Source: Dehalococcoidia bacterium UBA5620 (GTDB lineage: Bacteria > Chloroflexota > Dehalococcoidia > GIF9 > UBA5629). Taken from it: a stretch of DNA of 64,000 bases. The position numbers and the translations under genes are program-made. Below, in pieces: positions 14,690 through 18,137 of the stretch. The stretch is taken from the NCBI GenBank assembly GCA_002423605.1, contig DIKK01000028.1, positions 177,097 through 241,096 on the forward strand, in the 5' to 3' direction. Position 1 is the first letter of the stretch, and each line of letters opens with the position of its first letter. The notes beneath the pieces were generated by a model that searched no databases, was not told where the DNA came from, and worked only from the letters and a program-made list of their open reading frames with translations.

Positions 14690-15337
14690 CTAGCGCTTTT
14701 TTACCATGACAGCTACCTTCCGCATCTCGCCTTCACCCATGCTTTGAGTAGCCACATCGGGATGACTGGCCAGTGTTATATGAACAATACGACGCTCGTC
14801 GGCAGGCATAGGCTCAAGAGTCAACATGCGTTGACTTCGCTTTACCTGCTCCGCTACACGCAAAGCCAGATTACGCAAAGAATCATAACGACGCTTCTTG
14901 TAGCCGGCGACGTCGATGTTGAACGGTACCCACATCTTGGATTTCTCAGCAACTATAAGCCTGACAATATACTGTAGGGACGTTAATGTTTGCCCATGTC
15001 GACCGATTAAAATGCCTAAGTCGTCACCCTCAACATCTAAAGTCACAAGCAGCGAGTCAGTTTCACTCTTGCCCGTAGTAACTTTTGCCGATAATCCCAT
15101 AAACTCGATAATCTTATCAAGCACCTCTCTCGCCATTTTAACCACGTCACCATTCCCATTTTTCTCTGCCAAGAGCTTTACTTTTACCTTGGCATCCTCT
15201 GAGCCCATCCCCAACAGTCCAAGCCTGCCTTTATTCAAGACAACGACTTCCACCTGGTCATTTTCTACTCCCAGTTGCTCCAAAGCTGTCTGAATAGCCT
15301 CGTCAACTGTTTTAGCACTTATTTCTATTTCTTCCAT
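14690..15337 (-). CDS. jag: Jag/EloR RNA-binding protein (KH and R3H)
   Basis: AKTVDEAI, LIGRHGQTL, PMPADERRIVH, GEGEMRKV. Confidence 0.95.
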   Translation of the reverse strand: MEEIEISAKTVDEAIQTALEQLGVENDQVEVVVLNKGRLGLLGMGSEDAKVKVKLLAEKNGNGDVVKMAREVLDKIIEFMGLSAKVTTGKSETDSLLVTLDVEGDDLGILIGRHGQTLTSLQYIVRLIVAEKSKMWVPFNIDVAGYKKRRYDSLRNLALRVAEQVKRSQRMLTLEPMPADERRIVHITLASHPDVATQSMGEGEMRKVAVMVKKR

Positions 15338-16194
15338 TACCTGAAAAGACCCTTTTTCTCTCCGGATGCTTTTTTGATCGTCTGGGACTGCTCCTCCGCC
15401 TTCTTCGCTGTTTTGGTCTGCTCTTCTAATTGAGGCGGTTTCTGAGCTGGTACCGGTTTTGGAGTAAGCAAGTAACCCCAGCCACCACTCACAAAATACT
15501 GAATTATTATGCCGATGCTATTTGAAACCGCCCAATACAAAGCGAGTCCGCTCGGAAAGGATAGTGTAAGCATACCAAACATAAGCGGCATCATCATCGT
15601 AGTCATGCTGGTCATAGATTGTTGTCTGGGGTCAGTAGTCGGCGGCGTAACCATTTTTTGCTGCAGCCACATACTGCCACCTACTAGAATTGCCAAAATC
15701 AAATTGGGGTCTGGCCGCGATAATCGCAACCAGAGAAATTGCTCGTTAAGAGGAACAGCCTGGCTCACTGCCGGCCAGGCATAGAGATGTTGAGATAAAC
15801 CCAACAGGTTCTCAGGTGTAGTCGCCATCGCCTGCATAATGGACTGATAAAGCGCAATCCAGATAGGCAACTGGATGACCATAGGCCAAAGACAGCCCAA
15901 TGGATTCACCCCTGCCTCTTTGTACAACTTCACCATCTCTTGCTGCAGATGTTGCTGGTTGCGAGCATATTTCTTCTGGAGCTCTTGAATCTTAGGCTGC
16001 AGCGATTGCATTGCTTTGGTAGACCGGGTCTGTTTTACAGTGAGAGGAAACAGTATGAGACGCACAACAACAGTGAGGACGATGATTGCCCAGCCAAAAT
16101 TGTTACCTAGATAGGTAGACAAGGCAATCAAACTATTAAGGACGGGGTCGAAGATAACCGTATTCCAAATAATTGAAATATCCATTATAATCAA
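15337..16194 (-). CDS. yidC: Membrane protein insertase YidC (short form)
   Basis: GWAIIVLTVVVRLILFPL, LQPKIQELQKKY, NPLGCLWP, PSGLALYW. Confidence 0.95.
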   Translation of the reverse strand: MIIMDISIIWNTVIFDPVLNSLIALSTYLGNNFGWAIIVLTVVVRLILFPLTVKQTRSTKAMQSLQPKIQELQKKYARNQQHLQQEMVKLYKEAGVNPLGCLWPMVIQLPIWIALYQSIMQAMATTPENLLGLSQHLYAWPAVSQAVPLNEQFLWLRLSRPDPNLILAILVGGSMWLQQKMVTPPTTDPRQQSMTSMTTMMMPLMFGMLTLSFPSGLALYWAVSNSIGIIIQYFVSGGWGYLLTPKPVPAQKPPQLEEQTKTAKKAEEQSQTIKKASGEKKGLFR

Positions 16195-16197
16195 ACT

Positions 16198-17415
16198 CTA
16201 CTTATTAACTATCACTGACGAAAATTTCCAGGCTATTTGTCCATCCTGTAAGTCGATGCAATAGACATTCCTGTCCCGGGCATGGATATAAACATTGTTG
16301 CCATCAGCATAGATCGGAGCCATTACCTTAGAATCAATAGACACGGTTTTTACCATCGTCCCTTTGGCTGCATCCAGTATATACAGGCTGCCCGATTCAG
16401 AACATATCACCAGGGAATTCCCCACCAGCACTGGAGGCGCAACAAAAGAGCTGTCACCCTCGAATCTCCATAGCTCATTGCCTGTACTGGTCTCAATGGC
16501 ATAAACTCTGTGGTCCAGACAACCAACATAGGCAATATTATCCTTAACCACCGAATTTGCCCAAAACCAGCCATCTCCCTTAAACTTCCACCTTTCTTTA
16601 CCATCAGAGATACTAACACCATAAAGATAATTGTCAAAAGCGCCAAAAACGATATTGTCTCCTGATACTACGGGGGATGAAGCTATGGCTACAGGAAATT
16701 CGACTTGCCACAATAATTTACCAGTTTCACTGGAAATAGCACAAATCTTCTTGGCAAAATTACTGACATAGACAATCCCATCGCTCACGGACGGGGCTGT
16801 CCAAATTTTACCGCCGGTATCGAAGGCCCATCTTTCGTCCCCCTTAACCGCGTCTAATGCATAGAGCTTACCGTCAGAGCTGCCGACATAAAGAGTGTCT
16901 TTAACCACTATTGGGCTACCAACAACAGCCCCAATAAACTTTCCTTCTTTCCGTGGATAAAACCATTCTCCCTCAATCCATGACGGGATACCTTCTTCAT
17001 CATAACCAGGAGCCGACCTATTTATGGCCATCACCTTGCCATTATCCCCAGCATATGTAGCTACATAGACCAGGTCCTCTGCTATCACCGGAGTAGCATA
17101 TACAGCCGCTGGGTGCGCTGCCGGAGCGCAAGCCGGACCACATATCGAACCGCTAGGAGCAGTCTGAGAGCGGACAGTAACTACCCACTCACCTTCGCTG
17201 GGGAAAGGCAAGTTCATGCTTCGCGCAGAGACATTTAAGGCAATGACTTTCCCATCTATCGAAGTAAAATACAGCTTTCCCTCAGAGCCAGCAAACCCTG
17301 ACCATCCTTGAACAGCTGGCGCGGAACAGCCCAGTGCAGGCAAGAAAAGAATAGCTGCTAAACACAGCAAGACAATTAGGTCTGTTGATCTGTTTGAGAA
17401 GAATCTGAGTTTCAC
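16198..17415 (-). CDS. PQQ-like beta-propeller (BamB-like) lipoprotein
   Basis: Lipobox ALGC; repeated SP..DGxVYxG..DG.LYAxD..TG..xW blades. Confidence 0.88.
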   Translation of the reverse strand: MKLRFFSNRSTDLIVLLCLAAILFLPALGCSAPAVQGWSGFAGSEGKLYFTSIDGKVIALNVSARSMNLPFPSEGEWVVTVRSQTAPSGSICGPACAPAAHPAAVYATPVIAEDLVYVATYAGDNGKVMAINRSAPGYDEEGIPSWIEGEWFYPRKEGKFIGAVVGSPIVVKDTLYVGSSDGKLYALDAVKGDERWAFDTGGKIWTAPSVSDGIVYVSNFAKKICAISSETGKLLWQVEFPVAIASSPVVSGDNIVFGAFDNYLYGVSISDGKERWKFKGDGWFWANSVVKDNIAYVGCLDHRVYAIETSTGNELWRFEGDSSFVAPPVLVGNSLVICSESGSLYILDAAKGTMVKTVSIDSKVMAPIYADGNNVYIHARDRNVYCIDLQDGQIAWKFSSVIVNK

Positions 17416-17448
17416 TTTACGATACTTCCATTGTTTTGCTTACTAAAA

Positions 17449-17658
17449 CTATGGTACCGGGTCATAACCGCCGGCAGACCAGGGATGACATCGGCCTATA
17501 CGTTTGGTTGCCAACCAGCTACCCCTAACCAATCCATATTTCGCTATTGCCTCCACAGCATAATGAGAACAGGTGGGAGTAAACCGGCACGAAGGCGGAG
17601 TAACCTGCGATATTGTAAATTGATACAATTTAATCAACCCTATTGCCATTTTTTTCAT
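17449..17658 (-). CDS. yidD: Membrane protein insertion efficiency factor YidD
   Basis: [11 protein letters not shown]...[17 protein letters not shown]. Confidence 0.96.
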
Positions 17659-17992
17659 CTTTGTCTTGCAATAAACACACTCGGCCTAGCAATCTACTTA
17701 TTGACCCATCGAGCTGATGATAATCAGCGGTTGCTGCGCTGGGGCGAGATACAAAAACTATATCCCAGCCCGGTCTCAATGATTTCAAGCGTACTATCTC
17801 TCTCAATAAACGCCGCACCCGATTACGTACTACTGCTTTACCTACGCTCTTAGTTACCGAGAAGCCATACCTGCTTAATTTCAGGCCATTGGGCAATGCT
17901 TTCATCCATATAAGATCGCCTCCCCAAGACTTACCTGATTTGTAAACTGCCACATACTGAGTCCTGCTTGTCAAAGCCCATTCTCGCGACAT
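17630..17992 (-). CDS. rnpA: Ribonuclease P protein component
   Basis: [23 protein letters not shown]. Confidence 0.96.
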
Positions 17993-17996
17993 GGTA

Positions 17997-18137
17997 CTAG
18001 ACTGGCGTTAACCGCCATCGGCCTTTGAGCCGCCTTGATTTCAAAACTGCCTTGCCACCAGCGGTAGCCACTCTGGCTCGATATCCATGTGTACGCCTTC
18101 TCTTTATCTTTTTAGGCTGATATGTCCGTTTTGGCAT
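17997..18137 (-). CDS. rpmH: 50S ribosomal protein L34 (absent from the ORF track)
   Basis: Manual translation [46 protein letters not shown]; TAATG overlap with rpsR. Confidence 0.97.

Follow-up and report, generated by a model that had tools for sequence, protein, structure and literature searches.

A Beta-Propeller Lipoprotein Encoded Beside yidC in Dehalococcoidia and Anaerolineae Is a Probable Outer-Face Partner of a Core-Only Insertase

Introduction

Bacterial insertases of the YidC/Oxa1 family are usually described as single-chain machines, and dedicated subunits on the trans side of the membrane are known for the eukaryotic membrane protein complex of the endoplasmic reticulum (EMC). 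In this work, a 64,000-nucleotide (nt) stretch of DNA from Dehalococcoidia bacterium UBA5620 (contig DIKK01000028.1, positions 177,097 to 241,096 of the forward strand; hereafter the window) was analyzed with respect to one gene, coding for a predicted lipoprotein with a beta-propeller of the pyrroloquinoline quinone (PQQ)-like type, that lies between yidD and yidC. We conclude that the propeller is probably a dedicated physical partner module of the core-only YidC encoded directly downstream of it. A full-text literature search found no published link between YidC and a propeller lipoprotein in Chloroflexota.

Several described systems resemble this pair in part. In E. coli, YidC carries its outer domain (P1), a beta-supersandwich, within its own chain. 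The order seen there (PDB 3WVF), i.e., an N-terminal membrane anchor, a large beta-rich domain on the outer face and the five-helix core, recurs in a natural propeller–YidC fusion (P0416) presented below, but the module of the window is a propeller of eight blades, carries a lipid anchor and, in nearly all lineages, is made as a polypeptide of its own. BamB (YfgL), too, is a lipoprotein; its PQQ-like propeller has eight blades, is devoid of a cofactor site and acts as a scaffold beside a machine that inserts membrane proteins. Unlike BamB, the propeller of the window is predicted to sit on the cytoplasmic membrane, its genetic partner is YidC and not BamA, and its lineage has been reported to be devoid of BamA. 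The outer-membrane gene pattern of Chloroflexi is reported to be that of the monoderm Terrabacteria, with bamA and the lipopolysaccharide (LPS) genes absent (PMC5826079, PMC8871954). The public annotation of the propeller as 'BamB' is misleading, since the lineage is reported to lack BamA.

Two precedents combine a propeller with an insertase of this superfamily. Ycf48/HCF136 of cyanobacteria and chloroplasts, a lumenal seven-bladed beta-propeller, is an assembly factor on the trans side that co-purifies with the cyanobacterial YidC and engages newly inserted chains (PMC11449106); it differs from the propeller of the window in having seven blades, in belonging to another family, in being specialised for photosystem II and in being encoded outside the yidC operon. 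EMC1 has PQQ-like propeller repeats located on the trans side and works with EMC3, an insertase subunit of the Oxa1/YidC superfamily (PMC7188443), but it is anchored by a C-terminal helix within a complex of eight to ten subunits and shows no detectable specific homology to the window propeller. Both precedents are used here as analogies and not as homologues. Two further small propellers of the PQQ-like type, for neither of which a bound cofactor is known, are YxaL of Bacillus and an archaeal protein (3HXJ). YxaL is a secreted protein for which no link to YidC has been reported, and neither of the two proteins is known to be encoded beside yidC.

The Propeller and yidC Genes of the Window

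An earlier note on this DNA, made from the letters alone, had described an rpmH-rnpA-yidD-yidC-jag operon with an inserted 405-amino-acid (aa) lipoprotein of the PQQ/BamB type, the stop of which falls only 3 nt from the start of the yidC open reading frame (ORF). The ORF list and the family scans confirmed the first point, and a reading of the junction confirmed the second. The block is composed of the following elements:

17997..18137, minus strand: rpmH, ribosomal protein L34, the first gene of the conserved block (Pfam Ribosomal_L34, 1e-20)
17630..17992, minus strand: rnpA, RNase P protein (Pfam Ribonuclease_P, 8.5e-25)
17449..17658, minus strand: yidD, membrane protein insertion efficiency factor, 69 aa (Pfam YidD, 2.3e-32; TIGR00278, 92 bits against a cut-off of 40)
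16198..17415, minus strand: PQQ_2/BamB-like beta-propeller lipoprotein, 405 aa, eight blades, GTG start (Pfam PQQ_2, 4e-51, and AlphaFold2)
16195..16200, minus strand: the junction, propeller stop TAG plus one codon, AGT (read from the sequence)
15337..16194, minus strand: yidC, core-only insertase, 285 aa (Pfam 60KD_IMP, 1e-55; TIGR03592)
14690..15337, minus strand: jag/khpB with Jag_N, KH and R3H domains (NF041568 Jag_EloR, 199 bits against a cut-off of 145)

The junction reads '...AAT AAG TAG AGT TTG ATT ATA ATG...', with 3 nt between the TAG of the propeller gene and the TTG start of yidC and 12 nt to the next ATG, all in the same frame. Since the two genes share a frame in the window, read-through of the TAG would give a 692-aa chain. 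Neither a second propeller nor a second yidC was found within the window. The scan for promoters and terminators gave counts not above those of shuffled sequence and no terminator between the genes.

Conservation of the Gene Order

The synteny was surveyed in two directions. The set chosen by YidC comprised one genome per species, 59 loci altogether, mostly from Dehalococcoidia with several from Anaerolineae, and the propeller was sought in them by tblastn. It was found between yidD and yidC in 58 of the 59 loci; the remaining one is cut 195 nt upstream of yidC, which makes the score for intact loci 58 of 58. The adjacency was kept although the identity of the propeller drops to 23–30% across this set. 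The set chosen by the propeller consisted of 80 metagenome loci (38–62% identity) found with an alignment of closer relatives. Wherever there was room, yidC followed the propeller gene directly (68/68 loci) and yidD directly preceded it (70/70). The same order was present in two further Anaerolineae-type loci and in the locus L062. The distance from the propeller stop to the first yidC start codon had a median of 8–11 nt and did not exceed 25 nt in 122 of 127 loci.

The adjacency of the propeller gene and yidC is far beyond chance. A sporadic occurrence, named in the earlier note as an outcome that would speak against a functional pair, was not observed: the order held in every tested intact locus, in both directions, in Dehalococcoidia and Anaerolineae alike. 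In the mirror-tree analysis, the pairwise distances between propellers tracked those of every other operon protein (r 0.63–0.80), which fits an old, vertical inheritance.

A Natural Propeller–YidC Fusion

The 692-aa read-through chain was used as the query in an exhaustive phmmer search of 1.84 billion cluster representatives. The search returned a 701-aa protein (P0416), to residues 26–612 of which the query residues 28–645 align in a single stretch. In this protein, a lipobox (IATGC) with QGW behind it leads into a PQQ_2 propeller, after which come a 17-aa linker (SSTVPPSGGSSAFPIGR) and a complete 60KD_IMP core (residues 407–608). Its 90% cluster contains ten full-length variants of 701–702 aa, 98.0–99.3% identical, drawn from assemblies in ENA, Logan and NCBI; a single member is annotated as 'MAG: membrane protein insertase YidC [Chloroflexi bacterium]'. 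The fusion ORF runs uninterrupted in the DNA of three loci (L149, L150 and L152), and the gene is located ahead of jag-pfkB-parA-parB, the normal position of yidC. The fusion is a derived state, because in the tree its YidC core nests in the propeller-linked clade beside L062, a lineage with split genes.

The cluster represents the Rosetta-stone situation, i.e., proteins that are separate in some genomes and reproducibly fused in another. The fusion implies that the C-terminus of the propeller and the N-terminus of YidC face the same side of the membrane and that the two proteins tolerate being joined covalently through some 17 residues; it puts the propeller where the Gram-negative YidC carries its P1 domain.

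In the lineage nearest to the fusion, a 271-aa gene call with Ribonuclease_P and YidD domains (L062:4031-4846) was noted, either an rnpA-yidD fusion or a merged call.

YidC Architectures in Sister Lineages

A search for YidC relatives of 380–1211 aa led to a clade of Chloroflexota YidCs of 448–494 aa, in which a signal-anchor and a DUF11/DUF7927 Ig-like domain stand ahead of the core (P0244–P0262). This architecture seems to be undescribed. The YidC genes of the DUF11 type were located at:

L060:6001-7386, DUF11-type YidC
L063:5001-6485, DUF11-type YidC
L064:4295-5656, DUF11-type YidC
L065:4429-5850, DUF11-type YidC

The loci L060, L061, L063, L064 and L065 read rpmH-rnpA-yidD-YidC-jag-pfkB-parA-parB and leave no room for a propeller, and none was detected in them by tblastn over 7–13 kb. 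The nearest relatives of the DUF11-type YidCs, P0284 (L066:5001-6179, on a contig labelled Litorilinea) and P0265, have lipoboxes of their own (VLSGC and LLAGC, respectively), as is the case for YidC with its own lipoprotein signal in Firmicutes. At the P0284 locus, no propeller gene was present between yidD and yidC.

In the maximum-likelihood tree of YidC cores, the propeller-linked YidCs formed one clade (support 98/94) and the self-anchored ones its sister clade (98/97). The distribution suggests that in Chloroflexota the outer or anchoring module may be either carried by YidC itself or delivered by the upstream lipoprotein. Since this complementary pattern comes down to a single split in the tree, it is suggestive and not statistical.

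Among the long YidCs, P0259 (448 aa) has a partial 60KD_IMP followed by Jag_N; it may be a true fusion of YidC with Jag, or gene calling may have merged yidC and jag, which overlap.

Modelling of the Read-Through Chain

The AlphaFold2 input alignment for the 692-aa chain contained 12 naturally in-frame paired rows along with unpaired rows. The model reached a predicted template modelling score (pTM) of 0.81 and a mean predicted local distance difference test (pLDDT) of 86.6, with a disordered linker (residues 404–411, below pLDDT 50). According to our estimate from the definition of pTM, two domains not fixed relative to each other would be expected to give about 0.58–0.61, and a pTM of 0.8 needs inter-domain errors of about 4–5 Å. 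The high pTM points to a fixed arrangement of propeller and YidC in the model; we treat it as supporting, not decisive, evidence for the interface that the earlier note had expected structure prediction to reveal.

The Propeller Lipoprotein

The following features of the propeller were distinguished:

17326..17415, minus strand: signal peptide and lipobox, residues 1–30 (...LPALGC), Cys30 being the predicted lipid-anchor site
16561..16569, minus strand: W283-F284-W285 motif in a loop leading into the first strand of a blade, W283 and W285 invariant and F284 at least 90% conserved (58 sequences)
17128..17142, minus strand: CGPAC (CxxxC) loop, residues 92–96, an insertion between blades (pLDDT 58–68, low confidence)

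Signal peptide, lipobox and an invariant Cys predict a bacterial lipoprotein. In the alignment of 58 family members, Cys30 and G40 are invariant, G37 and W38 are at least 90% conserved, and a conserved GW(S)G motif follows Cys30; a lipobox-like Cys was present in every full-length orthologue with a readable start. The C-terminal residues of the propeller (VIVNK) form no membrane helix, the anchor being the N-terminal lipobox. Further invariant positions in the 58 sequences are W205, W236, W283, W285 and P328. The W283-F284-W285 cluster is a candidate for residues of a binding face. The CGPAC loop pointed out in the earlier note is indeed present, but it is not conserved across the family: it is invariant among close relatives only, and more distant orthologues have one Cys or none. 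Hence, its candidacy as a functional redox motif of the family was rejected; judged by sequence, the loop is a detail of the lineage and no family feature.

AlphaFold2 folded the propeller into eight four-stranded blades (pLDDT 90.9, pTM 0.86), and the PQQ_2 score of 174 bits against a cut-off of 27.6 places it in the PQQ_2/BamB-type eight-bladed fold. Foldseek comparison with solved structures gave E. coli BamB as the best natural match (E ~1e-22, 17–21% identity), followed by tetrathionate hydrolase and YxaL; the 50 matches listed did not include EMC1. In the comparison by sequence profile, the closest natural proteins of solved structure were 3HXJ, the archaeal PQQ-like protein (248 bits), and YxaL (172 bits), with BamB at about 130 bits. 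The equivalog cut-offs for BamB were not reached (TIGR03300, 131.3 vs 285.2 bits; PRK11138, 97.2 vs 423). The cut-offs for PQQ dehydrogenases were not reached either (TIGR03075, 69 bits vs 480; TIGR03074, 45 vs 833), and the mature propeller has about 375 aa compared with 560–690 aa in the solved PQQ dehydrogenases, so that the identity as a PQQ dehydrogenase, which the earlier note had considered as a possible objection, does not apply. EMC1_C (PF07774) found no match at E<=10 in the window propeller or in two close homologues, and the Pfam scan gave no match to the Ycf48/HCF136 family at E<=10, the propeller having eight and not seven blades. Altogether, the profile evidence indicates that the propeller is neither a BamB orthologue, nor a quinoprotein enzyme, nor an EMC1 homologue. 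The idea of an EMC-like pair was not borne out as far as homology is concerned, and the likeness stands as an analogy only.

The strongest library matches to the propeller part (P0361–P0368 and others) were giants of 1,700–5,000 aa, in which the PQQ-like stretches matched number as many as 19. Another library protein, P0498 (737 aa), is the same kind of propeller lipoprotein (lipobox, then GWSG) with many extra blades inserted.

The Core-Only YidC

The YidC of the window scored 188.6 bits against 60KD_IMP (cut-off 35) and 196.5 bits against TIGR03592 (cut-off 84.3), which identifies it as an insertase core. The first core helix contains VVVRLILFPL; its Arg44 pairs in the alignment with the Arg of the E. 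coli YidC segment FIVRGIMYPL and corresponds to the conserved Arg of the hydrophilic groove. The alignment spans residues 331–533 of the E. coli protein, residue 9 of the window YidC matching residue 331, and the protein lacks an N-terminal transmembrane helix, a lipobox and an outer domain. The description of this YidC as short (285 aa) and devoid of a large extracytoplasmic domain was thereby confirmed. Two of its regions were noted:

15736..15828, minus strand: outer-face loop after the second core helix, YidC residues 123–153, about 22 aa longer than in E. coli (pLDDT 76–85 in the read-through model)
15340..15477, minus strand: Lys-rich C-terminal tail, YidC residues 240–285 (from the sequence; low pLDDT in the read-through model)

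The longer outer loop was considered as a propeller-specific docking site and found unsupported. A similar 'PE..L..HL' motif is present in the actinobacterial YidC, which has no propeller, so the loop is not specific to the propeller–YidC pairing.

The Lys-rich tail, about 45 aa long and predicted to be disordered, resembles the ribosome-binding tails of Oxa1 and of the Gram-positive YidC2. Ribosome binding by such Lys-rich tails is known for both proteins, and by analogy the tail of the window YidC may have a similar role.

Proposed Role of the Propeller and Alternative Explanations

The suggestion that the propeller acts in trans as the outer-face module of the short YidC gained support from the adjacency, the coupling of the genes, the complementary architectures, the fusion and the fold of the read-through chain. 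We favour it because the propeller gene is adjacent to yidC in every sampled relative and is fused to it in one lineage. According to this proposal, the propeller and yidC would be co-transcribed within rpmH-rnpA-yidD-propeller-yidC-jag and probably translationally coupled. The lipid-anchored, eight-bladed propeller would be positioned on the outer face of the cytoplasmic membrane, docking on the outer face of YidC at the place occupied by P1 in the Gram-negative YidC. Most likely it would be a non-catalytic scaffold or holdase, and it could hold the translocated loops of substrates or recruit other factors on the outer face.

More tentatively, and with slightly less than even confidence, we extend this proposal to a holo-insertase of three parts, used by Dehalococcoidia as well as Anaerolineae. 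In it, the membrane-embedded YidC core would be joined by YidD at the cytoplasmic face and by a stoichiometric propeller, eight-bladed and lipid-anchored, at the outer face; the propeller would hold translocated client segments or recruit outer-face partners. Such a complex would be an independently evolved bacterial counterpart of EMC1–EMC3 and Ycf48–YidC. If it exists, the outer domain of YidC would be an exchangeable module that may take the form of the P1 supersandwich, a DUF11 domain, a bare lipid anchor, or a propeller acting in cis or trans. A universal machine would gain a new accessory component across two large, environmentally abundant classes, and a tractable bacterial model would become available for the service of a trans-side propeller to an Oxa1-family insertase. 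The clade with the propeller–YidC pair includes the organohalide-respiring Dehalococcoides.

Several observations weigh against the partnership of the propeller and YidC. A short YidC is normal in monoderms and not unusual by itself; actinobacterial YidCs start at the same point and are equally anchorless, with no propeller. The fusion is confined to one species-level lineage, adjacent genes can fuse without interacting, and the first, word-indexed search with the YidC region (candidates of 380–1211 aa) showed no fusion among the top 120. The complementary pattern, as a single split in the tree, has an n of effectively 1. In the mirror-tree analysis, the partial correlation between propeller and YidC (0.40) was no higher than that between propeller and L34 (0.39). 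The pTM of 0.81 stands without a predicted aligned error (PAE) map, coordinates or a negative control, and the short covalent link together with a few residues of unpaired rows misplaced by MAFFT could inflate the confidence of the model. The stretch was found in DNA runs only and in no RNA runs. Finally, the binding of the propeller to YidC, the stoichiometry and the effect on substrates in the window organism are inferred.

Some of these points would also be expected if the propeller were a passenger of the operon, i.e., a general envelope scaffold engaged, for example, in the handling of S-layer, wall or exo-proteins, kept in this housekeeping operon, which is strongly expressed, for co-expression only and not binding YidC. 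PQQ_2 propellers are common and versatile surface proteins: at E<=0.001, the read-through chain, which as a query combines propeller and YidC, matched 84,475 library proteins, and the majority of the 150 best did so in the propeller part, giant multi-propeller proteins included. The secreted Bacillus relative YxaL without a known YidC link, the lack of a special propeller–YidC signal in the mirror-tree and the missing RNA runs agree with such a role. A passenger, however, does not easily account for an adjacency without exception among about 130 loci from two classes, whichever of the two genes the loci were chosen by, with a usual stop-to-start gap of 8–11 nt, nor for the maintenance of an in-frame fusion to the N-terminus of YidC, the complementary N-terminal modules in the sister clades and the high pTM predicted for the read-through chain. 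We consider the passenger explanation unlikely.

Far less probable is that the protein is a true BamB, serving the assembly of beta-barrels as a subunit of the BAM machine in an outer membrane that would be cryptic, and we give this explanation very little credence. It would agree with BamB providing the best natural fold matches, with the label 'BamB' that many sources attach to the homologues, and with the debate that still surrounds the envelope of some Chloroflexota (PMC8871954). The scores speak otherwise (131 bits vs 285 for TIGR03300 and 97 vs 423 for PRK11138, at 17–21% identity), the sequence is nearer to the archaeal PQQ-like protein and YxaL than to BamB, bamA and the LPS genes have been reported as missing in genomes of Chloroflexi (PMC5826079, PMC8871954), contrary to the pairing with a BamA that the earlier note had listed as a possible objection, and the fusion ties the propeller to an insertase of the inner membrane. 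A quinoprotein enzyme, whether a PQQ-dependent dehydrogenase or another catalytic propeller, e.g., similar to tetrathionate hydrolase, is close to refuted. The Pfam PQQ score of 68 bits, the weak matches to alcohol-dehydrogenase families and the presence of tetrathionate hydrolase among the fold matches are outweighed by the small size of the mature protein and the TIGR03075 and TIGR03074 scores far below the cut-offs; moreover, the positions that never vary are Trp, Gly and Pro with a structural role in the blades, and the operon contains no gene for a redox partner. The reading preferred here remains that of a propeller serving YidC as its partner on the outer face.

Neighbouring Genes and Minor Observations

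The conserved block is flanked upstream by rpsF, ssb and rpsR and downstream by ileS. The start of jag overlaps the stop of yidC by 1 nt (window positions 15335-15339), rnpA and yidD overlap by 29 nt (17630-17658), and the stop of rpsR shares 1 nt with the start of rpmH (18137). These overlaps are further signs of tight coupling in the operon.

Nearly all of the stretch coding for the propeller (16198-17415) was also present in a 2013 run of a hydrocarbon metagenome, and parts of it in landfill and groundwater metagenomes.

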